Below, one piece after another: positions 1 through 21,764 of a stretch of 64,000 nt of DNA. A model generated the notes under the pieces. It was not told where the DNA came from. It did no database searches and worked only from the letters and a program-made list of their open reading frames with translations. This stretch comes from a virus (Duplodnaviria; Heunggongvirae; Uroviricota; Caudoviricetes), in IMG/VR virus record IMGVR_UViG_2861074659_000002, one strand, 5' to 3'. Position 1 is the stretch's first letter. The number at the start of each line of letters is the position of its first letter. The translations under genes were made by a program, and so were the position numbers.

Positions 1-1201
<1,201 letters not shown>

Positions 1202-1224
<23 letters not shown>

Positions 1225-1420
1225 TTCTGATCCTCTTCAAAAGGCCACCTGTTACTGGTCGATTTAAGTCAACCTTTACCGCTGATTCGTGGAACAGATA
1301 CTCTCTTCCATCCTTAACCGGAGGTGGGAATATCCTGCATTCCCGAACCCATCGACGAACTGTTTCAAGGCTTCTTGGACGTCGCTGGCGTGCGTTCCAC
1401 TCCTGAAGTGTCAAGTACAT
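1202..1420 (-). CDS. xis: Excisionase Xis (72 aa)
   Basis: MYLTLQEWNARQRRPRSLETVRRWVRECRIFPP... matches lambda Xis; overlaps int start. Confidence 0.95.
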
Positions 1421-1715
1421 CGCAAAGTCTCCGCAATTACACGCAAGAAAAAACCGCCATCAGGCGGCTTGGTGTTCTTTCAGTTCTTCAATTCGAATAT
1501 TGGTTACGTCTGCATGTGCTATCTGCGCCCATATCATCCAGTGGTCGTAGCAGTCGTTGATGTTCTCCGCTTCGATAACTCTGTTGAATGGCTCTCCATT
1601 CCATTCTCCTGTGACTCGGAAGTGCATTTATCATCTCCATAAAACAAAACCCGCCGTAGCGAGTTCAGATAAAATAAATCCCCGCGAGTGCGAGGATTGT
1701 TATGTAATATTGGGT

Positions 1716-1997
1716 TTAATCATCTATATGTTTTGTACAGAGAGGGCAAGTATCGTTTCCACCGTACTCGTGATAATAATTTTGCACGGTATCAGTCATT
1801 TCTCGCACATTGCAGAATGGGGATTTGTCTTCATTAGACTTATAAACCTTCATGGAATATTTGTATGCCGACTCTATATCTATACCTTCATCTACATAAA
1901 CACCTTCGTGATGTCTGCATGGAGACAAGACACCGGATCTGCACAACATTGATAACGCCCAATCTTTTTGCTCAGACTCTAACTCATTGATACTCAT
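1716..1997 (-). CDS. ea8.5: Ea8.5 protein (93 aa)
   Basis: Position and length match lambda ea8.5 downstream of xis. Confidence 0.8.
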   Translation of the reverse strand: MSINELESEQKDWALSMLCRSGVLSPCRHHEGVYVDEGIDIESAYKYSMKVYKSNEDKSPFCNVREMTDTVQNYYHEYGGNDTCPLCTKHIDD

Positions 1998-2188
1998 TTA
2001 TAAACTCCTTGCAATGTATGTCGTTTCAGCTAAACGGTATCAGCAATGTTTATGTAAAGAAACAGTAAGATAATACTCAACCCGATGTTTGAGTACGGTC
2101 ATCATCTGACACTACAGACTCTGGCATCGCTGTGAAGACGACGCGAAATTCAGCATTTTCACAAGCGTTATCTTTTACAAAACCGATC

Positions 2189-2737
2189 TCACTCTCCTTT
2201 GATGCGAATGCCAGCGTCAGACATCATATGCAGATACTCACCTGCATCCTGAACCCATTGACCTCCAACCCCGTAATAGCGATGCGTAATGATGTCGATA
2301 GTTACTAACGGGTCTTGTTCGATTAACTGCCGCAGAAACTCTTCCAGGTCACCAGTGCAGTGCTTGATAACAGGAGTCTTCCCAGGATGGCGAACAACAA
2401 GAAACTGGTTTCCGTCTTCACGGACTTCGTTGCTTTCCAGTTTAGCAATACGCTTACTCCCATCCGAGATAACACCTTCGTAATACTCACGCTGCTCGTT
2501 GAGTTTTGATTTTGCTGTTTCAAGCTCAACACGCAGTTTCCCTACTGTTAGCGCAATATCCTCGTTCTCCTGGTCGCGGCGTTTGATGTATTGCTGGTTT
2601 CTTTCCCGTTCATCCAGCAGTTCCAGCACAATCGATGGTGTTACCAATTCATGGAAAAGGTCTGCGTCAAATCCCCAGTCGTCATGCATTGCCTGCTCTG
2701 CCGCTTCACGCAGTGCCTGAGAGTTAATTTCGCTCAC
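2189..2737 (-). CDS. ea22: Ea22 protein (182 aa)
   Basis: Position and length match lambda ea22. Confidence 0.8.
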   Translation of the reverse strand: MSEINSQALREAAEQAMHDDWGFDADLFHELVTPSIVLELLDERERNQQYIKRRDQENEDIALTVGKLRVELETAKSKLNEQREYYEGVISDGSKRIAKLESNEVREDGNQFLVVRHPGKTPVIKHCTGDLEEFLRQLIEQDPLVTIDIITHRYYGVGGQWVQDAGEYLHMMSDAGIRIKGE

Positions 2738-2955
2738 TTCGAACCTCTCTGTTTACTGATAAGTTCCAGATCCTCCTGGCAACTTGCACAAGTCCGACAA
2801 CCCTGAACGACCAGGCGTCTTCGTTCATCTATCGGATCGCCACACTCACAACAATGAGTGGCAGATATAGCCTGGTGGTTCAGGCGGCGCATTTTTATTG
2901 CTGTGTTGCGCTGTAATTCTTCTATTTCTGATGCTGAATCAATGATGTCTGCCAT
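2734..2955 (-). CDS. Small hypothetical protein with four-Cys zinc-ribbon motif (CCECGD...CRTCASC), TraR/DksA-like
   Basis: 73 aa ORF overlapping ea22 start by 4 nt (operon-like coupling); Cys spacing typical of C4 zinc finger. Confidence 0.5.
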   Translation of the reverse strand: MADIIDSASEIEELQRNTAIKMRRLNHQAISATHCCECGDPIDERRRLVVQGCRTCASCQEDLELISKQRGSK

Positions 2956-3180
2956 CTTTCATTAATCCCTGAACTGTTGGTTAATACGCTTGAGGGTGAA
3001 TGCGAATAATAAAAAAGGAGCCTGTAGCTCCCTGATGATTTTGCTTTTCATGTTCATCGTTCCTTAAAGACGCCGTTTAACATGCCGATTGCCAGGCTTA
3101 AATGAGTCGGTGTGAATCCCATCAGCGTTACCGTTTCGCGGTGCTTCTTCAGTACGCTACGGCAAATGTCATCGACGTTT

Positions 3181-3366
3181 TTATCCGGAAACTGCTGTCT
3201 GGCTTTTTTTGATTTCAGAATTAGCCTGACGGGCAATGCTGCGAAGGGCGTTTTCCTGCTGAGGTGTCATTGAACAAGTCCCATGTCGGCAAGCATAAGC
3301 ACACAGAATATGAAGCCCGCTGCCAGAAAAATGCATTCCGTGGTTGTCATACCTGGTCTCTCTCAT
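3181..3366 (-). CDS. Hypothetical protein orf61 (61 aa)
   Basis: Length and position match lambda orf61. Confidence 0.55.
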   Translation of the reverse strand: MRETRYDNHGMHFSGSGLHILCAYACRHGTCSMTPQQENALRSIARQANSEIKKSQTAVSG

Positions 3367-3538
3367 CTGCTTCTGCTTTCGCCACCATCATTTCCAGCTT
3401 TTGTGAAAGGGATGCGGCTAACGTATGAAATTCTTCGTCTGTTTCTACTGGTATTGGCACAAACCTGATTCCAATTTGAGCAAGGCTATGTGCCATCTCG
3501 ATACTCGTTCTTAACTCAACAGAAGATGCTTTGTGCAT
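3347..3538 (-). CDS. Hypothetical protein orf63 (63 aa)
   Basis: Length and position match lambda orf63. Confidence 0.55.
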   Translation of the reverse strand: MHKASSVELRTSIEMAHSLAQIGIRFVPIPVETDEEFHTLAASLSQKLEMMVAKAEADERDQV

Positions 3539-3693
3539 ACAGCCCCTCGTTTATTATTTATCTCCTCAGCCAGCCGCTGTGCTTTCAGTGGATTTCGGAT
3601 AACAGAAAGGCCGGGAAATACCCAGCCTCGCTTTGTAACGGAGTAGACGAAAGTGATTGCGCCTACCCGGATATTATCGTGAGGATGCGTCAT
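3511..3693 (-). CDS. Hypothetical protein orf60a (60 aa from second Met of ORF)
   Basis: [19 protein letters not shown]...; 4-nt overlap with exo as in lambda. Confidence 0.55.
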
Positions 3694-4370
3694 CGCCATT
3701 GCTCCCCAAATACAAAACCAATTTCAGCCAGTGCCTCGTCCATTTTTTCGATGAACTCCGGCACGATCTCGTCAAAACTCGCCATGTACTTTTCATCCCG
3801 CTCAATCACGACATAATGCAGGCCTTCACGCTTCATACGCGGGTCATAGTTGGCAAAGTACCAGGCATTTTTTCGCGTCACCCACATGCTGTACTGCACC
3901 TGGGCCATGTAAGCTGACTTTATGGCCTCGAAACCACCGAGCCGGAACTTCATGAAATCCCGGGAGGTAAACGGGCATTTCAGTTCAAGGCCGTTGCCGT
4001 CACTGCATAAACCATCGGGAGAGCAGGCGGTACGCATACTTTCGTCGCGATAGATGATCGGGGATTCAGTAACATTCACGCCGGAAGTGAATTCAAACAG
4101 GGTTCTGGCGTCGTTCTCGTACTGTTTTCCCCAGGCCAGTGCTTTAGCGTTAACTTCCGGAGCCACACCGGTGCAAACCTCAGCAAGCAGGGTGTGGAAG
4201 TAGGACATTTTCATGTCAGGCCACTTCTTTCCGGAGCGGGGTTTTGCTATCACGTTGTGAACTTCTGAAGCGGTGATGACGCCGAGCCGTAATTTGTGCC
4301 ACGCATCTTCCCCCTGTTCGACAGCTCTCACATCGATCCCGGTACGCTGCAGGATAATGTCCGGTGTCAT
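3690..4370 (-). CDS. exo: Lambda exonuclease (Red alpha, 226 aa)
   Basis: [20 protein letters not shown]... matches lambda Exo. Confidence 0.95.
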
Positions 4371-5152
4371 GCTGCCACCTTCTGCTCTGCGGCTTTCTGT
4401 TTCAGGAATCCAAGAGCTTTTACTGCTTCGGCCTGTGTCAGTTCTGACGATGCACGAATGTCGCGGCGAAATATCTGGGAACAGAGCGGCAATAAGTCGT
4501 CATCCCATGTTTTATCCAGGGCGATCAGCAGAGTGTTAATCTCCTGCATGGTTTCATCGTTAACCGGAGTGATGTCGCGTTCCGGCTGACGTTCTGCAGT
4601 GTATGCAGTATTTTCGACAATGCGCTCGGCTTCATCCTTGTCATAGATACCAGCAAATCCGAAGGCCAGACGGGCACACTGAATCATGGCTTTATGACGT
4701 AACATCCGTTTGGGATGCGACTGCCACGGCCCCGTGATTTCTCTGCCTTCGCGAGTTTTGAATGGTTCGCGGCGGCATTCATCCATCCATTCGGTAACGC
4801 AGATCGGATGATTACGGTCCTTGCGGTAAATCCGGCATGTACAGGATTCATTGTCCTGCTCAAAGTCCATGCCATCAAACTGCTGGTTTTCATTGATGAT
4901 GCGGGACCAGCCATCAACGCCCACCACCGGAACGATGCCATTCTGCTTATCAGGAAAGGCGTAAATTTCTTTCGTCCACGGATTAAGGCCGTACTGGTTG
5001 GCAACGATCAGTAATGCGATGAACTGCGCATCGCTGGCATCACCTTTAAATGCCGTCTGGCGAAGAGTGGTGATCAGTTCCTGTGGGTCGACAGAATCCA
5101 TGCCGACACGTTCAGCCAGCTTCCCAGCCAGCGTTGCGAGTGCAGTACTCAT
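4367..5152 (-). CDS. bet: Red beta single-strand annealing protein (261 aa)
   Basis: [48 protein letters not shown]... matches lambda Bet. Confidence 0.95.
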
Positions 5153-5157
5153 TCGTT

Positions 5158-5574
5158 TTATACCTCTGAATCAATATCAACCTGGTGGTGAGCAATGGTT
5201 TCAACCATGTACCGGATGTGTTCTGCCATGCGCTCCTGAAACTCAACATCGTCATCAAACGCACGGGTAATGGATTTTTTGCTGGCCCCGTGGCGTTGCA
5301 AATGATCGATGCATAGCGATTCAAACAGGTGCTGGGGCAGGCCTTTTTCCATGTCGTCTGCCAGTTCTGCCTCTTTCTCTTCACGGGCGAGCTGCTGGTA
5401 GTGACGCGCCCAGCTCTGAGCCTCAAGACGATCCTGAATGTAATAAGCGTTCATGGCTGAACTCCTGAAATAGCTGTGAAAATATCGCCCGCGAAATGCC
5501 GGGCTGATTAGGAAAACAGGAAAGGGGGTTAGTGAATGCTTTTGCTTGATCTCAGTTTCAGTATTAATATCCAT
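5158..5574 (-). CDS. gam: Gam RecBCD inhibitor (138 aa)
   Basis: [24 protein letters not shown]... matches lambda Gam. Confidence 0.95.
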
Positions 5575-5672
5575 TTTTTATAAGCGTCGACGGCTTCACG
5601 AAACATCTTTTCATCGCCAATAAAAGTGGCGATAGTGAATTTAGTCTGGATAGCCATAAGTGTTTGATCCAT
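5529..5672 (-). CDS. kil: Kil host-killing protein (47 aa)
   Basis: [47 protein letters not shown]. Confidence 0.75.
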
Positions 5673-5805
5673 TCTTTGGGACTCCTGGCTGATTAAGTAT
5701 GTCGATAAGGCGTTTCCATCCGTCACGTAATTTACGGGTGATTCGTTCAAGTAAAGATTCGGAAGGGCAGCCAGCAACAGGCCACCCTGCAATGGCATAT
5801 TGCAT
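5641..5805 (-). CDS. cIII: CIII (54 aa), FtsH inhibitor stabilising CII
   Basis: [54 protein letters not shown]. Confidence 0.85.
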   Translation of the reverse strand: MQYAIAGWPVAGCPSESLLERITRKLRDGWKRLIDILNQPGVPKNGSNTYGYPD

Positions 5806-5877
5806 GGTGTGCTCCTTATTTATACATAACGAAAAACGCCTCGAGTGAAGCGTTATTGGTATGCGGTAAAACCGCAC

Positions 5878-6246
5878 TCAGGCGGCCTTGATAGTCATAT
5901 CATCTGAATCAAATATTCCTGATGTATCGATATCGGTAATTCTTATTCCTTCGCTACCATCCATTGGAGGCCATCCTTCCTGACCATTTCCATCATTCCA
6001 GTCGAACTCACACACAACACCATATGCATTTAAGTCGCTTGAAATTGCTATAAGCAGAGCATGTTGCGCCAGCATGATTAATACAGCATTTAATACAGAG
6101 CCGTGTTTATTGAGTCGGTATTCAGAGTCTGACCAGAAATTATTAATCTGGTGAAGTTTTTCCTCTGTCATTACGTCATGGTCGATTTCAATTTCTATTG
6201 ATGCTTTCCAGTCGTAATCAATGATGTATTTTTTGATGTTTGACAT
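5878..6246 (-). CDS. ea10: Ea10 protein (122 aa)
   Basis: Length and position match lambda ea10. Confidence 0.75.
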   Translation of the reverse strand: MSNIKKYIIDYDWKASIEIEIDHDVMTEEKLHQINNFWSDSEYRLNKHGSVLNAVLIMLAQHALLIAISSDLNAYGVVCEFDWNDGNGQEGWPPMDGSEGIRITDIDTSGIFDSDDMTIKAA

Positions 6247-6428
6247 CTGTTCATATCCTCACAGATAAAAAATCGCCCTCACACTGGAGGGCAAAGAAGA
6301 TTTCCAATAATCAGAACAAGTCGGCTCCTGTTTAGTTACGAGCGACATTGCTCCGTGTATTCACTCGTTGGAATGAATACACAGTGCAGTGTTTATTCTG
6401 TTATTTATGCCAAAAATAAAGGCCACTA

Positions 6429-6629
6429 TCAGGCAGCTTTGTTGTTCTGTTTACCAAGTTCTCTGGCAATCATTGCCGTCGTTCGTATTGCCCATTTATC
6501 GACATATTTCCCATCTTCCATTACAGGAAACATTTCTTCAGGCTTAACCATGCATTCCGATTGCAGCTTGCATCCATTGCATCGCTTGAATTGTCCACAC
6601 CATTGATTTTTATCAATAGTCGTAGTCAT
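6429..6629 (-). CDS. ral: Ral restriction-alleviation protein (66 aa)
   Basis: MTTTIDKNQWCGQFKRCNGCKLQSECMVKPEEMFPVMEDGKYVDKWAIRTTAMIARELGKQNNKAA. Confidence 0.85.
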   Translation of the reverse strand: MTTTIDKNQWCGQFKRCNGCKLQSECMVKPEEMFPVMEDGKYVDKWAIRTTAMIARELGKQNNKAA

Positions 6630-6707
6630 ACGGATAGTCCTGGTATTGTTCCATCACATCCTGAGGATGCTCTTCGAACTCTTCAAATTCTTCTTCCATA
6701 TATCACC

Positions 6708-7037
6708 TCAAATAAGTGGTTTGCTGCCTAATTTAATTTTCTGGCGACCAACACAAGTCACACCCATTTCACTGCGTGGCTTGCTGTAGTAAATACGGTT
6801 CTGTTTACGCTCGACTTCTTCTGCCTTCTTGCAGCGAAGGCTTCCGAGTGATGCTGCTTTATCTGCTCTGACGCAACCAGAGAGCTTTAGCGCAATTTTT
6901 CGCGCCAGTGCTTCATTACTGCGTCGCTCGGCAATAAGTTCTGCTCTGCGAGCTTTGTAGCGGCTTTTTGCCGTACCTTTGGATTCTTTCCAGACAATGG
7001 TTACCATGATGGTCTCCTTTAAGTGGCTTTGGCGCAT
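6708..7037 (-). CDS. N: N antiterminator of phage-21 type (ORF 109 aa; true start may be the internal Met at MVTIVWKESKG)
   Basis: Arginine-rich motif GTAKSRYKARRAELIAERR typical of phi21 N; C-terminus resembles lambda N (...GRQKIK..PLI). Confidence 0.8.
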   Translation of the reverse strand: MRQSHLKETIMVTIVWKESKGTAKSRYKARRAELIAERRSNEALARKIALKLSGCVRADKAASLGSLRCKKAEEVERKQNRIYYSKPRSEMGVTCVGRQKIKLGSKPLI

Positions 7038-7300
7038 GACGCGTCGAGGTGCTTATCTTCTCGATCGCTGTCTTGTAGCTGCAATTCGCGCCATCCCCAA
7101 AACCACTCAAGTTCTGGTCTCAACGGTTAGGTTGAGAGTCCGTCGATGTTAAAGAGCCTGCCAATCTGTTCCGTTTGGCTTCCAGCGTCCTGCTGATGGC
7201 TTAAATTTAAGACTTCTTAATTTATTGGTCAAGTGCATTTTTGAAGAAAACTTAATTTTATGGGCGTGAATTTAGTTTGTCTTTGATTTTTAACGGGAAA

Positions 7301-7322
7301 TAAAAAAGGGGCGAAAGCCCCT
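7301..7322 (-). terminator. Rho-independent terminator hairpin downstream of cI (GGGGC-TTTC-GCCCC followed by T-run on minus strand)
   Basis: Perfect 5-bp stem with T6 tail read on minus strand immediately after cI stop. Confidence 0.5.
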
Positions 7323-7972
7323 TAAGGAAGGTTTGCTAGCTTGGCATCAACGACAACGCCAATGATTTTACAGTTCCCATTGATTTCAATCATTGGGTAT
7401 TGTGGATTGAGTGGTTTCAGGAATTTTCTACCGGCATCAATAACTAACTTTTTGAATGTCGCCTCGTTTTCTCCTTCAAGTTTGGCGACTACCAGCTTTC
7501 CATTACGTGGTTCGACTTCTGGGTCGACGAGAATAATCATCCCCTCAGGAATACTCAGTCCTGCCGGGGCAGTCATTGAATCGCCTTTAACGTCGAGCCA
7601 AAAAGAGTCTTCAGAACAATCTACCGTTGTGTCGTACCAGTTATCTATTGCACGCCTATGATATGGCTCTACAGCTTCCATCCAACATCCTGCGCTTACC
7701 CAACTAATTAGAGGATACGAACCTCTTGGATCATGCCTGCTGTGATAGGCAATGTTTGAAAGACTATCCTCTCCTTTCAACAGGTAATCAGGGGAGCACT
7801 GCAAAGCCTTGGCTAAGGCCAATAGGTTTTCGCCATTGGGCTCAGTTTCAGATCGCTCCCATTGGGAAATAGCAACATTAGACACGCCAACCATCTTGCC
7901 AAGGGCAGCCTGCCTAATCTTGAGTTCTTTTCTGCGAGCGCGAATACGCTCACCCATCAGTTGTGTATTCAT
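7322..7972 (-). CDS. cI: CI-type repressor (216 aa), P22 c2 / phage 21 family, HTH N-domain plus LexA-like S24 autocleavage domain
   Basis: MNTQLMGERIRARRKELKIRQAALGKMVGVSNVAISQWERSE...GDSM...NGNCKIIGVVVDAKLANLP; intact in copy 1. Confidence 0.9.
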   Translation of the reverse strand: MNTQLMGERIRARRKELKIRQAALGKMVGVSNVAISQWERSETEPNGENLLALAKALQCSPDYLLKGEDSLSNIAYHSRHDPRGSYPLISWVSAGCWMEAVEPYHRRAIDNWYDTTVDCSEDSFWLDVKGDSMTAPAGLSIPEGMIILVDPEVEPRNGKLVVAKLEGENEATFKKLVIDAGRKFLKPLNPQYPMIEINGNCKIIGVVVDAKLANLP

Positions 7973-8052
7973 AGTTAAGACATCTTAAATAAACTTGACT
8001 TAAGATTCCTTTGGTGGATAATTTAAGTGTTCTTTAATTTCGGAGCGAGTCT
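7973..8052. promoter_or_regulatory. Divergent operator/promoter region between cI and cro (OR with pR and pRM); candidate pR -35 TTGACT (7995..8000) and -10 GATAAT (8017..8022)
   Basis: 80-bp intergenic region between divergent repressor genes with sigma70-like hexamers at 16-bp spacing. Confidence 0.55.
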
Positions 8053-8237
8053 ATGTACAAAAAAGATGTTATTGACCACTTCGGAACCCAGCGTGCTGTT
8101 GCTAAGCACTAGGCATTAGCGATGCAGCAGTCTCTCAGTGGAAAGAAGTTATCCCAGAGAAAGACGCCTATCGATTGGAAATCGTTACAGCTGGCGCCCT
8201 GAAGTATCAAGAAAGTGCTTACCGCCAAGCGGCATAA
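8053..8237 (+). pseudogene. cro: Cro (P22 / phage 21 type) interrupted by a 1-bp deletion after codon 18 (AAA to AA), premature stop
   Basis: MYKKDVIDHFGTQRAVAKH* in copy 1 versus intact 61-aa ORF at 51392..51577 in copy 2. Confidence 0.8.
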
Positions 8238-8352
8238 GCAAATTGCTCTTTAACAGTTCTGGCCTTTCACCTCTAACCGGGTGAGCAAACATCAGCGGCA
8301 AATCCATTGGGTGTGCCGCTATAACTCAATATCAATATAGGTAAATTAACAA

Positions 8353-8650
8353 ATGGCACAAGCAAGCTACAGCAAGCCAACACAGCGAGAAATTGATCGC
8401 GCTGAAACTGATTTACTCATCAACCTGTCAACGCTTACCCAGCGCGGTCTGGCAAAGATGATTGGCTGTCATGAATCGAGATAAGCAGAACGGACTGGAG
8501 ATTATTGCTTCGGTCTTGTGTGCTTTCGGAATGGCATCAGACATCAGTCCGATTAGCAGGGCTTTTAAGTATGCGCTTGATGGACTCACAAAGAAAAAAC
8601 GCCCGGTGTGCAAGACCGAGCGTTCTGAACAAATCCAGATGGAGTTCTGA
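8353..8650 (+). pseudogene. cII: CII-like activator, apparently split over three reading frames (N-terminal 43 codons, then C-terminal ...KKKRPVCKTERSEQIQMEF in another frame)
   Basis: N-terminus MAQASYSKPTQREIDRAETDLLINLSTLTQRGLAKMIGCHES resembles cII HTH region; C-terminus matches lambda CII tail; same in both copies. Confidence 0.55.
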
Positions 8651-8681
8651 GGTCATTACTGGATCTATCAACAGAGTCATT

Positions 8682-9576
8682 ATGACAAATACAGCAAAAT
8701 ACTCAACTTCGGCAGAGGTAACTTGCCGGACAGGAGCGTAATGTGGCAGATCTCGATGATGGTTACGCCAGACTATCAAATATGCTGCTTGAGGCTTATT
8801 CGGGCGCAGATCTGACCAAGCGACAGTTTAAAGTGCTGCTTGCCATTCTGCGTAAACCTATGGTGGAATAAACCAATGGACAGAATCACCGATTCTCAAC
8901 TTAGCGAGATTACAAAGTTACCTGTCAAACGGTGCAATGAAGCCAAGTTAGAACTCGTCAGAATGAATATTATCAAGCAGCAAGGCGGCATGTTTGGACC
9001 AAATAAAAACATCTCAGAATGGTGTATCCCTCAAACGAGGGGAAAATCCCCTAAACGAGGGATAAAACATCCCTCAAATTGGGGGATTGCTATCCCTCAA
9101 AACAGGGGGACACAAAAGACACTATTACAAAAGAAAAAAGAAAAGATTATTCGTCAGAGAATTCTGGCGAATCCTCTGACCAGCCAGAAAACGACCTTTC
9201 TGTGGTGAAACCGGATGCTGCAATTCAGAGCGGCAGCAAGTGGGGGACAGCAGAAGACCTGACCGCCGCAGAGTGGATGTTTGACATGGTGAAGACTATC
9301 GCACCATCAGCCAGAAAACCGAATTTTGCTGGGTGGGCTAACGATATCCGCCTGATGCGTGAACGTGACGGACGTAACCACCGCGACATGTGTGTGCTGT
9401 TCCGCTGGGCATGCCAGGACAACTTCTGGTCCGGTAACGTGCTGAGCCCGGCCAAACTCCGCGATAAGTGGACCCAACTCGAAATCAACCGTAACAAGCA
9501 ACAGGCAGGCGTGACAGCCAGCAAACCAAAACTCGACCTGACAAACACAGACTGGATTTACGGGGTGGATCTATGA
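8682..9576 (+). pseudogene. O: Replication initiator O, fragmented by several 1-nt indels in N-terminal region and iterons; C-terminal 165 aa domain intact
   Basis: MTNTAK then frame breaks; pieces ...NKPMDRITDSQLSEITKLPVKRCNEAKLELVRMNIIKQQGGMFGPNKNISEWCIPQ and CYPSKQGDTKDT...WIYGVDL match lambda O in different frames. Confidence 0.8.
9026..9150. promoter_or_regulatory. ori: Origin of replication (four O-binding iterons ATCCCTCAAA-CGAGGG type plus AT-rich region) embedded in O
   Basis: Four tandem ~18-20 bp inverted-repeat iterons followed by A-rich tract; iteron spacer lengths differ from what I recall for lambda. Confidence 0.7.
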
Positions 9577-10274
9577 AAAACATCGCCGCACAGATGGTTA
9601 ACTTTGACCGTGAGCAGATGCGTCGGATCGCCAACAACATGCCGGAACAGTACGACGAAAAGCCGCAGGTACAGCAGGTAGCGCAGATCATCAACGGTGT
9701 GTTCAGCCAGTTACTGGCAACTTTCCCGGCGAGCCTGGCTAACCGTGACCAGAACGAAGTGAACGAAATCCGTCGCCAGTGGGTTCTGGCTTTTCGGGAA
9801 AACGGGATCACCACGATGGAACAGGTTAACGCAGGAATGCGCGTAGCCCGTCGGCAGAATCGACCATTTCTGCCATCACCCGGGCAGTTTGTTGCATGGT
9901 GCCGGGAAGAAGCATCCGTTACCGCCGGACTGCCAAACGTCAGCGAGCTGGTTGATATGGTTTACGAGTATTGCCGGAAGCGAGGCCTGTATCCGGATGC
10001 GGAGTCTTATCCGTGGAAATCAAACGCGCACTACTGGCTGGTTACCAACCTGTATCAGAACATGCGGGCCAATGCGCTTACTGATGCGGAATTACGCCGT
10101 AAGGCCGCAGATGAGCTTGTCCATATGACTGCGAGAATTAACCGTGGTGAGGCGATCCCTGAACCAGTAAAACAACTTCCTGTCATGGGCGGTAGACCTC
10201 TAAATCGTGCACAGGCTCTGGCGAAGATCGCAGAAATCAAAGCTAAGTTCGGACTGAAAGGAGCAAGTGTATGA
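9573..10274 (+). CDS. P: Replication protein P (DnaB helicase loader, 233 aa)
   Basis: Full-length match to lambda P. Confidence 0.95.
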
Positions 10275-11074
10275 CGGGCAAAGAGGCAATTATTCATTAC
10301 CTGGGGACGCATAATAGCTTCTGTGCGCCGGACGTTGCCGCGCTAACAGGCGCAACAGTAACCAGCATAAATCAGGCCGCGGCTAAAATGGCACGGGCAG
10401 GTCTTCTGGTTATCGAAGGTAAGGTCTGGCGAACGGTGTATTACCGGTTTGCTACCAGGGAAGAACGGGAAGGAAAGATGAGCACGAACCTGATGAACAA
10501 ACTGGATACGATTGGATTCGACAACAAAAAAGACCTGCTTATCTCGGTGGGCGATTTGGTTGATCGTGGTGCAGAGAACGTTGAATGCCTGGAATTAATC
10601 ACATTCCCCTGGTTCAGAGCTGTACGTGGAAACCATGAGCAAATGATGATTGATGGCTTATCAGAGCGTGGAAACGTTAATCACTGGCTGCTTAATGGCG
10701 GTGGCTGGTTCTTTAATCTCGATTACGACAAAGAAATTCTGGCTAAAGCTCTTGCCCATAAAGCAGATGAACTTCCGTTAATCATCGAACTGGTGAGCAA
10801 AGATAAAAAATATGTTATCTGCCACGCCGATTATCCCTTTGACGAATACGAGTTTGGAAAGCCAGTTGATCATCAGCAGGTAATCTGGAACCGCGAACGA
10901 ATCAGCAACTCACAAAACGGGATCGTGAAAGAAATCAAAGGCGCGGACACGTTCATCTTTGGTCATACGCCAGCAGTGAAACCACTCAAGTTTGCCAACC
11001 AAATGTATATCGATACCGGCGCAGTGTTCTGCGGAAACCTAACATTGATTCAGGTACAGGGAGAAGGCGCATGA
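10271..11074 (+). CDS. Ren-NinI fusion created by nin5-type deletion; C-terminal part is Ser/Thr protein phosphatase (lambda PPase) with GDxVDRG and GNHE motifs
   Basis: N-terminus [27 protein letters not shown] (Ren) joined in frame to ...[36 protein letters not shown]...RGNHE (NinI/orf221). Confidence 0.85.
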
Positions 11075-11694
11075 GACTCGAAAGCGTAGCTAAATTTCAT
11101 TCGCCAAAAAGCCCGATGATGAGCGACTCACCACGGGCCACGGCTTCTGACTCTCTTTCCGGTACTGATGTGATGGCTGCTATGGGGATGGCGCAATCAC
11201 AAGCCGGATTCGGTATGGCTGCATTCTGCGGTAAGCACGAACTCAGCCAGAACGACAAACAAAAGGCTATCAACTATCTGATGCAATTTGCACACAAGGT
11301 ATCGGGGAAATACCGTGGTGTGGCATATCTTGAAGGAAATACTAAGGCAAAGGTACTGCAAGTGCTCGCAACATTCGCTTATGCGGATTATTGCCGTAGT
11401 GCCGCGACGCCGGGGGCAAGATGCAGAGATTGCCATGGTACAGGCCGTGCGGTTGATATTGCCAAAACAGAGCTGTGGGGGAGAGTTGTCGAGAAAGAGT
11501 GCGGAAGATGCAAAGGCGTCGGCTATTCAAGGATGCCAGCAAGCGCAGCATATCGCGCTGTGACGATGCTAATCCCAAACCTTACCCAACCCACCTGGTC
11601 ACGCACTGTTAAGCCGCTGTATGACGCTCTGGTGGTGCAATGCCACAAAGAAGAGTCAATCGCAGACAACATTTTGAATGCGGTCACACGTTAG
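11071..11694 (+). CDS. Q: Late gene antiterminator Q (207 aa)
   Basis: Length/position and sequence match lambda Q. Confidence 0.9.
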
Positions 11695-11736
11695 CAGCAT
11701 GATTGCCACGGATGGCAACATATTAACGGCATGATA

Positions 11737-11766
11737 TTGACTTATTGAATAAAATTGGGTAAATTT
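11737..11766 (+). promoter_or_regulatory. Late promoter pR' (-35 TTGACT 11737..11742, -10 TAAATT 11760..11765, 17-bp spacer), with qut region
   Basis: Consensus-like sigma70 hexamers downstream of Q and about 190 nt upstream of tR'. Confidence 0.65.
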
Positions 11767-11805
11767 GACTCAACGATGGGTTAATTCGCTCGTTGTGGTA
11801 GTGAG

Positions 11806-12000
11806 ATGAAAAGAGGCGGCGCTTACTACCGATTCCGCCTAGTTGGTCACTTCGACGTATCGTCTGGAACTCCAACCATCGCAGGCAGAGAGGTCTGCAA
11901 AATGCAATCCCGAAACAGTTCGCAGGTAATAGTTAGAGCCTGCATAACGGTTTCGGGATTTTTTATATCTGCACAACAGGTAAGAGCATTGAGTCGATAA
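11806..12000 (+). CDS. Hypothetical orf-64 overlapping 6S leader RNA region
   Basis: 64-aa ORF at lambda orf-64 position; coding status doubtful. Confidence 0.3.
   Translation: MKRGGAYYRFRLVGHFDVSSGTPTIAGREVCKMQSRNSSQVIVRACITVSGFFISAQQVRALSR
11905..11966 (+). terminator. tR' terminator (3' end of 6S RNA): stem AATCCCGAAAC...GTTTCGGGATT followed by T-run
   Basis: Long GC-containing hairpin followed by TTTTTTA. Confidence 0.65.
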
Positions 12001-12370
12001 TCGTGAAGAGTCGGCGAGCCTGGTTAGCCAGTGCTCTTTCCGTTGTGCTGAATTAAGCGAATACCGGAAGCAGAACCGGATCACCAAATGCGTACAGGCG
12101 TCATCGCCGCCCAGCAACAGCACAACCCAAACTGAGCCGTAGCCACTGTCTGTCCTGAATTCATTAGTAATAGTTACGCTGCGGCCTTTTACACATGACC
12201 TTCGTGAAAGCGGGTGGCAGGAGGTCGCGCTAACAACCTCCTGCCGTTTTGCCCGTGCATATCGGTCACGAACAAATCTGATTACTAAACACAGTAGCCT
12301 GGATTTGTTCTATCAGTAATCGACCTTATTCCTAATTAAATAGAGCAAATCCCCTTATTGGGGGTAAGAC

Positions 12371-12694
12371 ATGAAGATGCCAGAAAAACATGACCTGTTG
12401 GCCGCCATTCTCGCGGCAAAGGAACAAGGCATCGGGGCAATCCTTGCGTTTGCAATGGCGTACCTTCGCGGCAGATATAATGGCGGTGCGTTTACAAAAA
12501 CAGTAATCGACGCAACGATGTGCGCCATTATCGCCTGGTTCATTCGTGACCTTCTCGACTTCGCCGGACTAAGTAGCAATCTCGCTTATATAACGAGCGT
12601 GTTTATCGGCTACATCGGTACTGACTCGATTGGTTCGCTTATCAAACGCTTCGCTGCTAAAAAAGCCGGAGTAGAAGATGGTAGAAATCAATAA
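12371..12694 (+). CDS. S: Holin/antiholin S (S107 from Met1; S105 holin from Met3 at 12377), wild type
   Basis: [34 protein letters not shown]...; dual-start MKM motif; Trp56 codon intact. Confidence 0.95.
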
Positions 12695-13154
12695 TCAACG
12701 TAAGGCGTTCCTCGATATGCTGGCGTGGTCGGAGGGAACTGATAACGGACGTCAGAAAACCAGAAATCATGGTTATGACGTCATTGTAGGCGGAGAGCTA
12801 TTCACTGATTACTCCGATCACCCTCGCAAACTTGTCACGCTAAACCCAAAACTCAAATCAACAGGCGCCGGACGCTACCAGCTTCTTTCCCGTTGGTGGG
12901 ATGCCTACCGCAAGCAGCTTGGCCTGAAAGACTTCTCTCCGAAAAGTCAGGACGCTGTGGCATTGCAGCAGATTAAGGAGCGTGGCGCTTTACCTATGAT
13001 TGATCGTGGTGATATCCGTCAGGCAATCGACCGTTGCAGCAATATCTGGGCTTCACTGCCGGGCGCTGGTTATGGTCAGTTCGAGCATAAGGCTGACAGC
13101 CTGATTGCAAAATTCAAAGAAGCGGGCGGAACGGTCAGAGAGATTGATGTATGA
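12678..13154 (+). CDS. R: Endolysin R (lytic transglycosylase, 158 aa)
   Basis: [28 protein letters not shown]... matches lambda R. Confidence 0.95.
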
Positions 13155-13612
13155 GCAGAGTCACCGCGATTATCTCCGCTCTGGTTATCTGCATCATCGT
13201 CTGCCTGTCATGGGCTGTTAATCATTACCGTGATAACGCCATTACCTACAAAGCCCAGCGCGACAAAAATGCCAGAGAACTGAAGCTGGCGAACGCGGCA
13301 ATTACTGACATGCAGATGCGTCAGCGTGATGTTGCTGCGCTCGATGCAAAATACACGAAGGAGTTAGCTGATGCTAAAGCTGAAAATGATGCTCTGCGTG
13401 ATGATGTTGCCGCTGGTCGTCGTCGGTTGCACATCAAAGCAGTCTGTCAGTCAGTGCGTGAAGCCACCACCGCCTCCGGCGTGGATAATGCAGCCTCCCC
13501 CCGACTGGCAGACACCGCTGAACGGGATTATTTCACCCTCAGAGAGAGGCTGATCACTATGCAAAAACAACTGGAAGGAACCCAGAAGTATATTAATGAG
13601 CAGTGCAGATAG
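13151..13612 (+). CDS. Rz: Spanin inner-membrane subunit Rz (153 aa)
   Basis: Matches lambda Rz. Confidence 0.9.
13371..13553 (+). CDS. Rz1: Spanin outer-membrane lipoprotein Rz1 (60 aa), embedded in +1 frame of Rz
   Basis: [23 protein letters not shown]... lipobox LVVVGC, proline-rich. Confidence 0.85.
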
Positions 13613-13643
13613 AGCTGACCATATCGATGGGCAACTCATGCAA

Positions 13644-13937
13644 TTATTTTGAGCAATACACACGCGCTTCCAGCGGAGTATAAATGCCTAAAGTAATAAA
13701 ACCGAGCAATCCATTTACGAATGTTTGCTGGGTTTCTGTTTTAACAACATTTTCTGCGCCGCCACAAATTTTAGCTGCATCGACAGTTTTCTTCTGCCCA
13801 ATTCCAGAAACGAAGAAATGATGGGTGATGGTTTCCTTTGGTGCTACTGCTGCCGGTTTGTTTTGAACAGTAAACGTCTGTTGAGCACATCCTGTAATAA
13901 GCAGGGCCAGCGCAGTAGCGAGTAGCATTTTTTTCAT
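13644..13937 (-). CDS. bor: Bor lipoprotein (serum resistance, 97 aa)
   Basis: MKKMLLATALALLITGCAQQ... lipobox; matches lambda Bor. Confidence 0.9.
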   Translation of the reverse strand: MKKMLLATALALLITGCAQQTFTVQNKPAAVAPKETITHHFFVSGIGQKKTVDAAKICGGAENVVKTETQQTFVNGLLGFITLGIYTPLEARVYCSK

Positions 13938-14226
13938 GGTGTTATTCCCGATGCTTTTTGAAGTTCGCAGAATCGTATGTGTAGAAAATTAAACAAACCC
14001 TAAACAATGAGTTGAAATTTCATATTGTTAATATTTATTAATGTATGTCAGGTGCGATGAATCGTCATTGTATTCCCGGATTAACTATGTCCACAGCCCT
14101 GACGGGGAACTTCTCTGCGGGAGTGTCCGGGAATAATTAAAACGATGCACACAGGGTTTAGCGCGTACACGTATTGCATTATGCCAACGCCCCGGTGCTG
14201 ACACGGAAGAAACCGGACGTTATGAT

Positions 14227-14760
14227 TTAGCGTGGAAAGATTTGTGTAGTGTTCTGAATGCTCTCAGTAAATAGTAATGAATTATCAAAGGTATAGTAAT
14301 ATCTTTTATGTTCATGGATATTTGTAACCCATCGGAAAACTCCTGCTTTAGCAAGATTTTCCCTGTATTGCTGAAATGTGATTTCTCTTGATTTCAACCT
14401 ATCATAGGACGTTTCTATAAGATGCGTGTTTCTTGAGAATTTAACATTTACAACCTTTTTAAGTCCTTTTATTAACACGGTGTTATCGTTTTCTAACACG
14501 ATGTGAATATTATCTGTGGCTAGATAGTAAATATAATGTGAGACGTTGTGACGTTTTAGTTCAGAATAAAACAATTCACAGTCTAAATCTTTTCGCACTT
14601 GATCGAATATTTCTTTAAAAATGGCAACCTGAGCCATTGGTAAAACCTTCCATGTGATACGAGGGCGCGTAGTTTGCATTATCGTTTTTATCGTTTCAAT
14701 CTGGTCTGACCTCCTTGTGTTTTGTTGATGATTTATGTCAAATATTAGGAATGTTTTCAC
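14227..14760 (-). CDS. Hypothetical protein (lambda p78-like, 177 aa)
   Basis: ORF at lambda p78 position between bor and cos. Confidence 0.6.
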
Positions 14761-14922
14761 TTAATAGTATTGGTTGCGTAACAAAGTGCGGTCCTGCTGG
14801 CATTCTGGAGGGAAATACAACCGACAGATGTATGTAAGGCCAACGTGCTCAAATCTTCATACAGAAAGATTTGAAGTAATATTTTAACCGCTAGATGAAG
14901 AGCAAGCGCATGGAGCGACAAA

Positions 14923-15129
14923 ATGAATAAAGAACAATCTGCTGATGATCCCTCCGTGGATCTGATTCGTGTAAAAAATATGCTTAATAGCACCATTTCT
15001 ATGAGTTACCCTGATGTTGTAATTGCATGTATAGAACATAAGGTGTCTCTGGAAGCATTCAGAGCAATTGAGGCAGCGTTGGTGAAGCACGATAATAATA
15101 TGAAGGATTATTCCCTGGTGGTTGACTGA
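14923..15129 (+). CDS. Hypothetical protein (lambda p79-like, 68 aa)
   Basis: ORF at lambda p79 position. Confidence 0.4.
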
Positions 15130-15293
15130 TCACCATAACTGCTAATCATTCAAACTATTTAGTCTGTGACAGAGCCAACACGCAGTCTGTCACTGTCAGG
15201 AAAGTGGTAAAACTGCAACTCAATTACTGCAATGCCCTCGTAATTAAGTGAATTTACAATATCGTCCTGTTCGGAGGGAAGAACGCGGGATGT

Positions 15294-15488
15294 TCATTCT
15301 TCATCACTTTTAATTGATGTATATGCTCTCTTTTCTGACGTTAGTCTCCGACGGCAGGCTTCAATGACCCAGGCTGAGAAATTCCCGGACCCTTTTTGCT
15401 CAAGAGCGATGTTAATTTGTTCAATCATTTGGTTAGGAAAGCGGATGTTGCGGGTTGTTGTTCTGCGGGTTCTGTTCTTCGTTGACAT
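15294..15488 (-). CDS. Putative small ribbon-helix-helix DNA-binding protein (64 aa)
   Basis: RNIRFPNQMIEQINIALEQKG...FSAWVIEACRRRL pattern resembles Arc/CopG RHH fold; about 200 bp from cos. Confidence 0.35.
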   Translation of the reverse strand: MSTKNRTRRTTTRNIRFPNQMIEQINIALEQKGSGNFSAWVIEACRRRLTSEKRAYTSIKSDEE

Positions 15489-15675
15489 GAGGTTGCCCCG
15501 TATTCAGTGTCGCTGATTTGTATTGTCTGAAGTTGTTTTTACGTTAAGTTGATGCAGATCAATTAATACGATACCTGCGTCATAATTGATTATTTGACGT
15601 GGTTTGATGGCCTCCACGCACGTTGTGATATGTAGATGATAATCATTATCACTTTACGGGTCCTTTCCGGTGATC

Positions 15676-15699
15676 CGACAGGTTACGGGGCGGCGACCT
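15676..15699. other. cos: cos site (cosN); right end ...CAGGTTACG joined to left-end 12-nt cohesive sequence GGGCGGCGACCT
   Basis: Exact lambda cohesive-end sequence at 15688..15699 followed by Nu1 190 nt downstream. Confidence 0.9.
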
Positions 15700-15876
15700 C
15701 GCGGGTTTTCGCTATTTATGAAAATTTTCCGGTTTAAGGCGTTTCCGTTCTTCTTCGTCATAACTTAATGTTTTTATTTAAAATACCCTCTGAAAAGAAA
15801 GGAAACGACAGGTGCTGAAAGCGAGCTTTTTGGCCTCTGTCGTTTCCTTTCTCTGTTTTTGTCCGTGGAATGAACA

Positions 15877-16396
15877 ATGGAAGTCAACAAAAAGCAGCTG
15901 GCTGACATTTTCGGTGCGAGTATCCGTACCATTCAGAACTGGCAGGAACAGGGAATGCCCGTTCTGCGAGGCGGTGGCAAGGGTAATGAGGTGCTTTATG
16001 ACTCTGCCGCCGTCATAAAATGGTATGCCGAAAGGGATGCTGAAATTGAGAACGAAAAGCTGCGCCGGGAGGTTGAAGAACTGCGGCAGGCCAGCGAGGC
16101 AGATCTCCAGCCAGGAACTATTGAGTACGAACGCCATCGACTTACGCGTGCGCAGGCCGACGCACAGGAACTGAAGAATGCCAGAGACTCCGCTGAAGTG
16201 GTGGAAACCGCATTCTGTACTTTCGTGCTGTCGCGGATCGCAGGTGAAATTGCCAGTATTCTCGACGGGCTCCCCCTGTCGGTGCAGCGGCGTTTTCCGG
16301 AACTGGAAAACCGACATGTTGATTTCCTGAAACGGGATATCATCAAAGCCATGAACAAAGCAGCCGCGCTGGATGAACTGATACCGGGGTTGCTGA

Positions 16397-16422
<26 letters not shown>
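15877..16422 (+). CDS. nu1: Terminase small subunit Nu1 (181 aa)
   Basis: MEVNKKQLADIFGASIRTIQNWQEQGMPV... matches lambda Nu1. Confidence 0.95.
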
Positions 16423-20103
<3,681 letters not shown>

Positions 20104-20123
<20 letters not shown>

Positions 20124-21422
20124 TCTCCCGCATATTGCCAGCATGGCCTTTAATGAGCCGCTGATGCTTGAACCCGCCTATGCGCGGGTTTTCTTTTGTG
20201 CGCTTGCAGGCCAGCTTGGGATCAGCAGCCTGACGGATGCGGTGTCCGGCGACAGCCTGACTGCCCAGGAGGCACTCGCGACGCTGGCATTATCCGGTGA
20301 TGATGACGGACCACGACAGGCCCGCAGTTATCAGGTCATGAACGGCATCGCCGTGCTGCCGGTGTCCGGCACGCTGGTCAGCCGGACGCGGGCGCTGCAG
20401 CCGTACTCGGGGATGACCGGTTACAACGGCATTATCGCCCGTCTGCAACAGGCTGCCAGCGATCCGATGGTGGACGGCATTCTGCTCGATATGGACACGC
20501 CCGGCGGGATGGTGGCGGGGGCATTTGACTGCGCTGACATCATCGCCCGTGTGCGTGACATAAAACCGGTATGGGCGCTTGCCAACGACATGAACTGCAG
20601 TGCAGGTCAGTTGCTTGCCAGTGCCGCCTCCCGGCGTCTGGTCACGCAGACCGCCCGGACAGGCTCCATCGGCGTCATGATGGCTCACAGTAATTACGGT
20701 GCTGCGCTGGAGAAACAGGGTGTGGAAATCACGCTGATTTACAGCGGCAGCCATAAGGTGGATGGCAACCCCTACAGCCATCTTCCGGATGACGTCCGGG
20801 AGACACTGCAGTCCCGGATGGACGCAACCCGCCAGATGTTTGCGCAGAAGGTGTCGGCATATACCGGCCTGTCCGTGCAGGTTGTGCTGGATACCGAGGC
20901 TGCAGTGTACAGCGGTCAGGAGGCCATTGATGCCGGACTGGCTGATGAACTTGTTAACAGCACCGATGCGATCACCGTCATGCGTGATGCACTGGATGCA
21001 CGTAAATCCCGTCTCTCAGGAGGGCGAATGACCAAAGAGACTCAATCAACAACTGTTTCAGCCACTGCTTCGCAGGCTGACGTTACTGACGTGGTGCCAG
21101 CGACGGAGGGCGAGAACGCCAGCGCGGCGCAGCCGGACGTGAACGCGCAGATCACCGCAGCGGTTGCGGCAGAAAACAGCCGCATTATGGGGATCTCAAC
21201 TGTGAGGAGGCTCACGGACGCGAAGAACAGGCACGCGTGCTGGCAGAAACCCCCGGTATGACCGTGAAAACGGCCCGCCGCATTCTGGCCGCAGCACCAC
21301 AGAGTGCACAGGCGCGCAGTGACACTGCGCTGGATCGTCTGATGCAGGGGGCACCGGCACCGCTGGCTGCAGGTAACCCGGCATCTGATGCCGTTAACGA
21401 TTTGCTGAACACACCAGTGTAA
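20104..21422 (+). pseudogene. C: Prohead protease C with nested scaffold Nu3; frameshifted by 1-bp deletion at 21191..21196
   Basis: GTG start at 20104; after ...AENSRIMGI the frame ends at 21261 while the C/Nu3 C-terminus (LAETPGMTVKTARRILAAAP...DLLNTPV) continues in another frame to 21422. Confidence 0.8.
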
Positions 21423-21431
21423 GGGATGTTT

Positions 21432-21764
21432 ATGACGAGCAAAGAAACCTTTACCCATTACCAGCCGCAGGGCAACAGTGACCCGGCTCATACCGCAACC
21501 GCGCCCGGCGGATTGAGTGCGAAAGCGCCTGCAATGACCCCGCTGATGCTGGACACCTCCAGCCGTAAGCTGGTTGCGTGGGATGGCACCACCGACGGTG
21601 CTGCCGTTGGCATTCTTGCGGTTGCTGCTGACCAGACCAGCACCACGCTGACGTTCTACAAGTCCGGCACGTTCCGTTATGAGGATGTGCTCTGGCCGGA
21701 GGCTGCCAGCGACGAGACGAAAAAACGGACCGCGTTTGCCGGAACGGCAATCAGCATCGTTTAA
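21432..21764 (+). CDS. D: Head decoration protein D (110 aa)
   Basis: [52 protein letters not shown]... Confidence 0.95.

Follow-up and report, generated by a model that had tools for sequence, protein, structure and literature searches.

Why should two lambdoid genomes that lie head to tail, and that are otherwise nearly identical, differ abruptly over less than three kilobases of their recombination genes? The window, i.e., the whole 64,000-nucleotide stretch of DNA analysed, holds the same lambda imm21 nin5 segment twice. Copy 1 (313..20661) extends from the BamHI site in int to B and carries, in order, xis, red, imm21, O, P, Q, the lysis genes, cos (15687/15688), A, W and B, and copy 2 (43655..64000) repeats this segment until it runs off the end of the window. 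Self-BLAST and a column-by-column comparison put the two copies at 99.69% identity with an offset of 43342, the differences amounting to 59 substitutions and five single-base indels. All but one of these substitutions (58/59) lie within 3580..6367 of copy 1 (46922..49709 in copy 2), a divergence of 2.08% over 2788 bp, and the copies do not differ at all within 313..3579, 6368..7565 and 8244..20661. The probability that at least 58 of 59 substitutions would fall in a pre-specified interval covering 13.7% of the repeat is about 4e-49. The initial annotation had placed the patch at 3579..6370 and 46921..49712, limits with which the column comparison agrees, and pairwise alignment bears out its view that the substitutions are confined there and not evenly spread. 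The identical translations that it reported for xis, ea8.5, ea22 and N are confirmed and extend to ral, and P, Q, the lysis genes and A/B all fall in 8244..20661, where the copies are without difference. Outside the patch the copies are indeed near-identical, but a second small cluster at 7566..8243 had been overlooked.

The two copies are engineered lambda genomes of the imm21 nin5 type. In each, phage 21 N-cI-cro-cII stands in place of lambda N-rex-cI-cro-cII; the immunity segment (6708..8651 in copy 1, with N21 at 6708..7007 and cI21 at 7322..7972, followed by cro and cII) differs from phage 21 and DE3 by indels alone, and comparison with lambda found no homology over 6724..8585. Outside this substitution, att-int-xis, P, Q, the lysis genes, cos and the structural genes are colinear with lambda at 99.8-99.9% identity (window 15688..50066 corresponds to lambda 1..34381), and the nin5 deletion is seen as a junction of lambda 40501 to 43298.

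The two genomes differ in structure at their int ends. Positions 1..319 (plus strand) hold the 5′ part of the TEM-1 bla gene from its ATG (1..306, a 100% match) and then an EcoRI-BamHI linker, read directly as ggaattcggatcc, which joins lambda at window position 313, the lambda BamHI site 27972 within int. The int gene of copy 1 is truncated (235..1224, minus strand) and codes for 304 lambda Int residues plus 25 junk residues, the C-terminal catalytic part being lost. Copy 2 has a full-length int (43496..44566, minus strand) whose 356-aa product is identical to lambda Int, and the int identity initially reported for the two copies therefore holds over their shared part only. Between the copies lies an intact attP core, GCTTTTTTATACTAA (43408..43422, plus strand), the sole copy of the core in the window, and the DE3 attR and attL ends meet at 43407/43408. 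Because the window begins inside the copy 1 insert, no attL, attR or bacterial DNA is found within its 64,000 nt, and the arrangement, which fits either, may be a chromosomal tandem prophage or a circular or concatemeric heterodimer. Dilysogens in tandem, linked via attP, are a standard construct in laboratory work; in the helper-packaging strains of Feiss et al. (PMC4669245), for instance, the genomes are likewise head to tail, with attP between them and cos in each, but here both genomes are imm21. An int-defective insertion phage next to an int+ genome looks like a vector plus helper pair. The context, lambda imm21 nin5 with an engineered insertion in int, is that of laboratory hybrid phages and not of natural mosaicism.

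A four-way alignment assigns the alleles of the patch. Copy 1 agrees with DE3, and copy 2 with phage 21 (OL657228), at each of the 58 sites, and all 57 sites of the copy 1 patch that are informative between lambda and 21 are of the lambda type. To the left of the patch (2764..3523), both copies are lambda-type at about 30 informative sites; from 6709 rightward, both follow phage 21, indels aside. In database comparisons, the copy 1 patch matches DE3, lambda imm21 (OM418625) and lambda h434 imm21 at 100% identity and lambda at 99.9%, while the best match of the copy 2 patch is phage 21 (99.5% over 4 kb), lambda and DE3 reaching 98.5%. The suggestion that the two copies took their modules from different lambdoid sources is thus correct, lambda/DE3 being the source for copy 1 and phage 21 for copy 2, except that no self-contained module was swapped, since the 21 tract of copy 2 spans about 5.5 kb from orf60a to O.

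The limits of that tract are given by the parental-type strings, which in each copy show one lambda-to-21 switch on the left and one 21-to-lambda switch on the right. In copy 2 the left switch lies within 46866..46921 (3524..3579 in copy-1 coordinates), 56 bp that are identical in lambda and 21 and sit in the orf63/orf60a overlap; informative sites are lambda-type up to 3523 and 21-type from 3580. In copy 1 it lies within 6368..6708, 341 bp identical in the two phages between ea10 and ral/orf28, after the last lambda-type site (6367) and before the first 21-type site (6709), an interval common to DE3, OM418625 and OM418627. A left junction between ea10 and ral is found in copy 1 but not in copy 2; it is a trait of the stocks sequenced so far and no defining feature of lambda imm21 hybrids. 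On the right, copy 1, copy 2 and DE3 return to lambda in the O gene at the ori iterons (9026..9155; 52365..52494 in copy 2), with site 9025 of the 21 type and sites from 9156 onward of the lambda type. From 3580 to 9025 in copy-1 coordinates, the phage 21 tract of copy 2 is unbroken, running for about 5.5 kb from exo-bet-gam-kil-cIII-ea10 through the immunity region into O. The patch thus has a right edge only because copy 1 also becomes phage 21-derived there, and what appears between the copies as a two-ended patch is a shifted left end of the 21 substitution.

Very probably, then, the window consists of two lambda imm21 nin5 genomes of laboratory origin, linked head to tail via attP, and the patch marks the unequal extent of their leftward 21 DNA. 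Both genomes are recombinants of lambda and phage 21, with 21 DNA reaching different distances leftward from the immunity region. The 21 tract of copy 1 starts between ea10 and ral and leaves the Red region (orf60a to ea10) to lambda; in copy 2 the exchange took place 2.8 kb further left, in the 56-bp identity at orf63/orf60a, so that its Red region is that of phage 21. Lambda and 21 are about 98% identical in these genes, and the outcome is therefore a sharp 2.8-kb patch with about 2% substitutions, most of them silent. The exchanges were presumably ordinary homologous recombination in the crosses that built or back-crossed the stocks. A right-arm ancestor common to both phages is likely, because the O-gene junction, the nin5 deletion and the Q-region changes are the same as in DE3, and the int-defective insertion phage (copy 1) was probably lysogenised together with the int+ imm21 phage (copy 2). 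Copy 2 itself may have arisen independently as a hybrid, at an earlier stage of back-crossing or when the phage was later crossed to phage 21 again. There is about an even chance that it is an int+ att+ b+ imm21 nin5 hybrid, distinct from the sequenced stocks, that took the whole Red-kil-cIII-ea10 block from 21, maybe as an earlier back-cross stage or a helper.

Differences between the copies that are sharply bounded on both sides could also suggest gene conversion without crossover, in which one of two identical lambda imm21 genomes later received a 2.8-kb 21-like tract, with both of its ends inside the Red region, from a source such as a prophage resident in the host or a phage infecting it at the same time. 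Lambdoid Red regions are widespread in E. coli, 4,144 of 5,426 genomes having a match. Such a conversion is nevertheless improbable. The right limit of the patch is no junction in copy 2, which stays 21-type to 9025 without any lambda-type site, and instead coincides with the left junction of copy 1, which recurs in DE3, OM418625 and OM418627. A conversion patch with two ends is rejected on this pattern (copy 1 lambda-type to 6367 and 21-type from 6709, copy 2 21-type over 3580..9025), and the patch recombination in one copy proposed in the initial annotation is not supported, for at the edges of the patch neither copy has donor sequence with recipient flanks on both sides. A resident E. coli prophage is rejected as donor as well: none of the 5,426 complete E. 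coli genomes matches the copy 2 patch over its full length at more than 98.4% identity, and phage 21 matches at every site, so that phage 21 itself is the donor. Crossing lambda imm21 once more with phage 21, with one exchange falling in shared 21 DNA, would give the same appearance, yet this would be a crossover with 21 and not a conversion.

Slightly less credible again is an artefact of sequencing or assembly, in which the copies would be truly identical, or a single genome, and the patch would reflect consensus errors, mis-polishing or reads from a mixed population. The window does contain sequence errors (about 19 single-base indels, with frameshifts), but these are indels clustered at 7566..9053, with none in the patch, and errors would not recreate phage 21 at all 58 sites with no novel base among them. 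The copies also differ in structure, bla interrupting int in one while the other has int whole, together with attP; even if the tandem join were false and came from a mixed stock, two genomes with different Red alleles would remain. Divergence of the Red module in place after a duplication, by local hypermutation or diversifying selection, has next to no claim on the data. The substitutions do fall in one functional module and cause 18 amino acid changes in exo, gam, ea10, kil, orf60a and bet. However, about two thirds of the changes are silent, every derived allele is already present in phage 21, the 17.5 kb of flanking sequence is unchanged (the cluster at 7566..8243 aside) and the ends of the tract coincide with lambda/21 recombination junctions.

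The relatives of the two hybrids place them among known laboratory phages. Like the lambda imm21 stocks (OM418625 and OM418627, the latter lambda h434 imm21), the window copies combine a lambda backbone with a phage 21 immunity segment, and their junctions lie within homologous lambda/21 DNA. Lambda imm21 is also reported to have further 21 sequence beyond the immunity region (Feiss et al., 2022, PMC9119081). Copy 2 differs from all sequenced stocks in that its 21 tract reaches 2.8 kb further left, from ea10 to orf60a. Right endpoints vary among stocks, OM418625 being 21-type to at least 9922 and OM418627 mosaic, whereas the window copies return to lambda at the ori iterons; the nin5 deletion is a further difference from both. 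Phage 21 shares with copy 2 the gene order orf60a-exo-bet-gam-kil-cIII-ea10-ral-N-cI and every site of 46922..~52364, save single-base deletions and one cI substitution, but outside this tract copy 2 is lambda throughout (int, xis, att, structural genes, P, Q and lysis).

Copy 1 is closest to DE3/vector D69 (EU078592), the prophage that provides BL21(DE3) with T7 RNA polymerase. Its identity with DE3 4697..41311 is 99.96% and is complete from the BamHI site in int to 8103; over window 313..36915 only 14 single-base indels (13 deletions and one insertion) and two substitutions in J (A1000V and V1077L) separate the two. The likeness includes both 21/lambda junctions, nin5, a lost HindIII site (lambda 44141) and a destroyed BamHI site (lambda 5505), and in both phages int is broken at BamHI 27972 by foreign DNA. 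However, DE3 carries lacI-lacUV5-T7 gene 1 as cargo, while window 1..312 has no DE3 match and its cargo end is TEM-1 bla. The EcoRI-B fragment (lambda 21226..26104), deleted in DE3, is present at 36915..41788, colinear with lambda. DE3 itself is rejected as copy 1 on its different cargo and the presence of this fragment, and, unlike DE3, the window has a second, int+ genome after copy 1. Another lead is lambda RS45, described as an imm21 bla′-lacZ vector with a 3′-truncated bla (Simons et al., 1987, via PMC2681174 and PMC5001618). By these descriptions, RS45-type phages share imm21 and the truncated bla with the window, where bla′ continues through the linker directly into lambda int and not into lacZ as in the described fusions. 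The bla-int junction had no match in complete E. coli genomes, phages and plasmids, nor did its exact pattern in IMG/VR, GTDB species genomes and JGI metagenomes. Exact-protein look-ups for the Bla′-fusion and truncated Int ORFs were empty, and the literature on D69, DE3 helper phages and lambda pir held nothing usable for the identity of the vector.

The second cluster of differences between the copies, at 7566..8243 in phage 21 cI and cro, has a single substitution, its other five differences being 1-bp indels. In the window as a whole, comparison with DE3, phage 21 and lambda shows roughly 19 single-base indels, which put frameshifts into cI, cro, cII, O, C, K and J. The single-base deletions in cI-cro-cII-O look like sequence error; they would inactivate essential genes, and parts of the sequence are therefore unreliable. 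The clustered indels (7566..9053) lie mostly in short runs of 2-4 bases, and all of them fall between SalI 7523 and EcoRI 9159, which suggests an old or poorly covered fragment sequence, and earlier phage 21 fragment sequences are known to hold numerous single-base errors (PMC9119081). With its frameshifting errors, the imm21 cI-cro-cII-O stretch of this record is unfit as a reference.

The patch is known biology, an ordinary by-product of old phage crosses. It records the construction of laboratory hybrids, illustrates the well-known homologous exchange between lambdoid phages and has little biological weight. Users of the strain or sequence should be aware that two non-identical imm21 genomes are present, one of them with phage 21 Red genes. 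If the proposed origin is correct, the tandem pair, heteroallelic at 58 markers within 2.8 kb, could report gene conversion between tandem prophages, and copy 2 would be a case of phage 21 Red proteins working in a lambda background.

Both versions of the Red region have whole reading frames, each ORF having one terminal stop and the same length in the two copies, and keep exo, bet and gam in the same order on the pL strand. Exo, Bet and Gam are the names under which identical sequence is annotated in DE3, lambda and phage 21; gene coordinates were transferred from the DE3 annotation and amino acid differences obtained by comparing translations, which agree with the per-gene counts given initially. 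All these genes are on the minus strand. The copies differ by 5 nt and 2 aa in orf60a (3511..3693; 46853..47035 in copy 2), by 17 nt and 6 aa in exo (3690..4370; 47032..47712), by 14 nt and 1 aa (T201S) in bet (4367..5152; 47709..48494), by 11 nt and 4 aa in gam (5158..5574; 48500..48916) and by 7 nt and 3 aa in ea10 (5878..6246; 49220..49588). In copy 1 coordinates, kil (5529..5672) has 2 aa differences and cIII (5641..5805) none. The differences in exo are E21D, T90A, D138N, N168D, I189V and I202M; E21D comes from site 4308, which is exo codon 21 by codon arithmetic and where the allele is private to the copy-1/DE3 lineage. Both allelic versions are probably active in recombination, judging from their identity to genes of viable lambda and 21, and the two modules should work alike, the difference between them presumably serving no particular purpose; pL is not active in a repressed lysogen. 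The patch also changes the restriction map: neither the EcoRI site at lambda 31747 nor the SmaI site at 31617 is present in exo of copy 2, which carries an extra SalI site at 49662.

The whole window is lambda-derived laboratory DNA, in which 15688..50066 is colinear with lambda 1..34381 and 313..6724 matches lambda 27971..34381, while the N-rex-cI-cro-cII region of lambda is swapped for a non-lambda segment and the nin5 deletion joins lambda 40501 to 43298. Self-comparison reveals one long direct repeat, 313..20661 (copy 1) versus 43655..64000 (copy 2), with 99.69% identity and an offset of 43342. When the alignment of the copies was walked column by column, 59 substitutions and five 1-bp indels were found. 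Fifty-eight of the substitutions lie within 3580..6367 (copy 2: 46922..49709), where divergence is 2.08% over 2788 bp; for a pre-specified interval representing 13.7% of the repeat, the probability of such clustering is ~4e-49. The initial annotation had reported this patch of clustered substitutions, and both its existence and its coordinates are confirmed, pairwise alignment of the copies with each other, lambda and phage 21 showing differences that are confined and not evenly spread. The accompanying statement that the copies are near-identical elsewhere holds for 313..3579, 6368..7565 and 8244..20661, where no difference exists, but it missed a second, smaller cluster at 7566..8243, in the phage 21 cI/cro region, composed of five single-base indels and one substitution.

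The patch spans orf60a-exo-bet-gam-kil-cIII-ea10, i.e., the Red region. Comparison of the translations gives two amino acid differences in orf60a, six in exo, one in bet, four in gam, two in kil, none in cIII and three in ea10, in agreement with the counts first proposed; as also claimed, xis, ea8.5, ea22 and N have the same translation in both copies, and so does ral. Roughly two in three nucleotide differences in the patch are silent, all of its reading frames are intact in both copies, and Exo, Bet, Gam, Kil, CIII and Ea10 are complete in either version. The pL genes of the Red region are off in a repressed lysogen, and nothing suggests a role for the difference, which is a pedigree marker.

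The parentage of the two versions is apparent from an alignment of both copies with DE3 (EU078592, the BL21(DE3) prophage) and phage 21 (OL657228): all 58 patch sites show the DE3 base in copy 1 and the phage 21 base in copy 2. With lambda added, 57 of these sites are lambda/21 polymorphisms, and the allele at the remaining one, 4308 (Exo E21D), is confined to the lineage of copy 1, DE3 and lambda imm21. Lambda and phage 21 differ by about 2% across the patch. In database searches, DE3, OM418625 (lambda imm21) and OM418627 (lambda h434 imm21) match the copy 1 patch at 100% identity, and lambda does so at 99.9%; for the copy 2 patch, the best match is phage 21 (99.5% over 4 kb), with lambda and DE3 at 98.5%. 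On the left, 88 informative sites define one clean parental switch per genome. In copy 2, the switch falls between 3523 (lambda-type) and 3580 (21-type), and no lambda-type site follows up to 9025; copy 1 is lambda-type through 6367, like DE3, OM418625 and OM418627, and 21-type from 6709. The left edge of the patch is hence the lambda/21 junction of copy 2, in a 56-bp identity stretch at the orf63/orf60a overlap, and the right edge is that of copy 1, in a 341-bp identity stretch between ea10 and ral. Over the interval between the edges, copy 1 is lambda and copy 2 phage 21. Since each genome has one left switch and copy 2 is 21-type without break from 3580 to 9025, the patch is a two-ended insert in neither. 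The parental strings support the view that the patch probably exists because the imm21 substitution ends at different points on the left in two laboratory hybrids, and such an endpoint difference is already known biology.

The proposal that the copies drew on different lambdoid sources is therefore upheld and can be made specific, as lambda versus phage 21 at 58/58 sites. Its companion, patch recombination in one copy, is not supported: a gene-conversion patch would be a bounded tract within one genome, in conflict with the unbroken run of 21 sequence in copy 2. Divergence of the Red module in place is excluded by the phage 21 allele at every one of the 58 sites, with no novel base; sequencing error cannot reproduce these alleles either, and the errors that the window does contain are indels located outside the patch. 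Had the tandem join arisen only in assembly, from a mixed phage stock, there would still be two genomes that differ in their Red alleles. As for the donor, a homologue of the patch region occurs in 4,144 of 5,426 complete E. coli genomes, none of which yields a full-length match to the copy 2 patch above 98.4%, against identity with phage 21 at every differing site; a resident prophage thus seems an unlikely donor. Because the copy 2 patch is contiguous with the imm21 segment, phage 21 itself is the simplest source.

Lambda imm21 originated from a cross of lambda with phage 21, followed by back-crosses to lambda, and homologous exchange in each cross could shift the ends of the 21 tract. The right-hand junction varies among sequenced lambda imm21 stocks: compared over 9025..9922, OM418625 is 21-type (P) at 25/25 informative sites through 9922 and OM418627 is a mosaic alternating with lambda-type (L) sites as PPPP LLLLLLL PP LLLLLLLLLLLL, and DE3 and both window copies change from 21 to lambda once only, at the ori iterons of gene O (between 9025 and 9156). 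The announcement of the lambda imm21 genomes describes the hybrids as carrying additional 21 sequence beyond the immunity region (PMC9119081). The right junction, the nin5 deletion and the changes in the Q region are common to copy 1, copy 2 and DE3, which argues that the right arms of both copies have one ancestor and that only a left-side cross sets the copies apart. Since back-crossing to lambda could only shorten the 21 tract, copy 2 would either have gone through fewer back-crosses or stem from an imm21 phage that was crossed with phage 21 again.

Position 1 of the window coincides with the first base of the TEM-1 bla start codon (ATG). After 306 bases of bla, an EcoRI-BamHI linker (ggaattcggatcc) makes the connection to lambda at the BamHI site within int (1..319), and the cargo further left lies outside the window; the left edge of the repeat, 313, is lambda BamHI site 27972. 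The bla break falls one base short of a ScaI half-site. Int of copy 1 is cut after residue 304, and so is expected to be non-functional. The sole attP core of the window (43408..43422) is intact, lies between the copies and is followed by the full-length int of copy 2 (43496..44566), identical to that of lambda. The window thus pairs an insertion phage whose int is disrupted with a following int+ phage of identical immunity, the two being joined via attP. The use of an int+ helper phage to lysogenise an int-defective phage is standard practice. Tandem dilysogens of the head-to-tail attP form are described as routine laboratory constructs (PMC4669245). Searches for the bla-int construct or junction in complete E. 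coli genomes, phage records, plasmids, IMG/VR, GTDB species genomes and JGI metagenomes were negative, and the two junction ORFs have no exact-protein match. The bla' fragment in imm21 copy 1 is reminiscent of the lambda RS45 family, described as imm21 bla'-lacZ phages; in the window, however, bla' adjoins int instead of lacZ. Copy 1 matches DE3 from DE3 position 4697 onward (99.96%), but was rejected as DE3 itself: it carries different cargo, and DE3/D69 has lost the EcoRI-B fragment (b region, lambda 21226..26104), which is present between the copies at 36915..41788.

Single-base lesions are concentrated elsewhere. Relative to DE3, phage 21, OM418625 and, for gene O only, lambda, all of which agree with one another, both copies lack a base at nine positions (8479, 8502, 8674, 8696, 8723, 8857, 8862, 9036 and 9053) and have an extra G at 9039; copy 1 alone lacks 8104, and copy 2 alone lacks 7566, 7791, 7827 and 8243 and carries the cI R9C substitution (7948). 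These clustered indels (7566..9053; copy 2: 50908..52392) all fall inside the interval bounded by SalI (7523) and EcoRI (9159); they put cro out of frame in copy 1 and cI in copy 2, and disrupt the frames of cII and O in both copies. Isolated single-A deletions versus DE3, outside homopolymer runs, occur at 21195 (gene C), 30112 (K) and 34223 (J), the first in what used to be a BamHI site (lambda 5505; C-to-A in DE3); if real, these would be lethal frameshifts in essential genes. As a phage with such lesions would be unable to grow, the indels most likely reflect record errors and not biology. Numerous single-base errors have been reported in earlier phage 21 fragment sequences (PMC9119081). 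The patch is free of all these indels.

Several minor differences from the lambda reference were also recorded. Three substitutions lie at 36345, 38128 and 41346. Gene J carries, at 34188 and 34417, C2999T (A1000V) and G3229T (V1077L) versus both lambda and DE3, in the C-terminal receptor-binding part; both are candidate host-range (h) mutations. As in DE3, two substitutions at 11326..11328 (copy 2: 54665..54667) have removed the Q-gene HindIII site (lambda 44141) from both copies, and five more differences at 12803..13773 (R/Rz/bor region) are common to DE3. Within exo, the EcoRI site (lambda 31747) and SmaI site (lambda 31617) are present in copy 1 (4089 and 3959) and absent from copy 2 (47431 and 47301), and the patch creates an extra SalI site in copy 2 at 49662; these differences are handy markers for distinguishing the copies.
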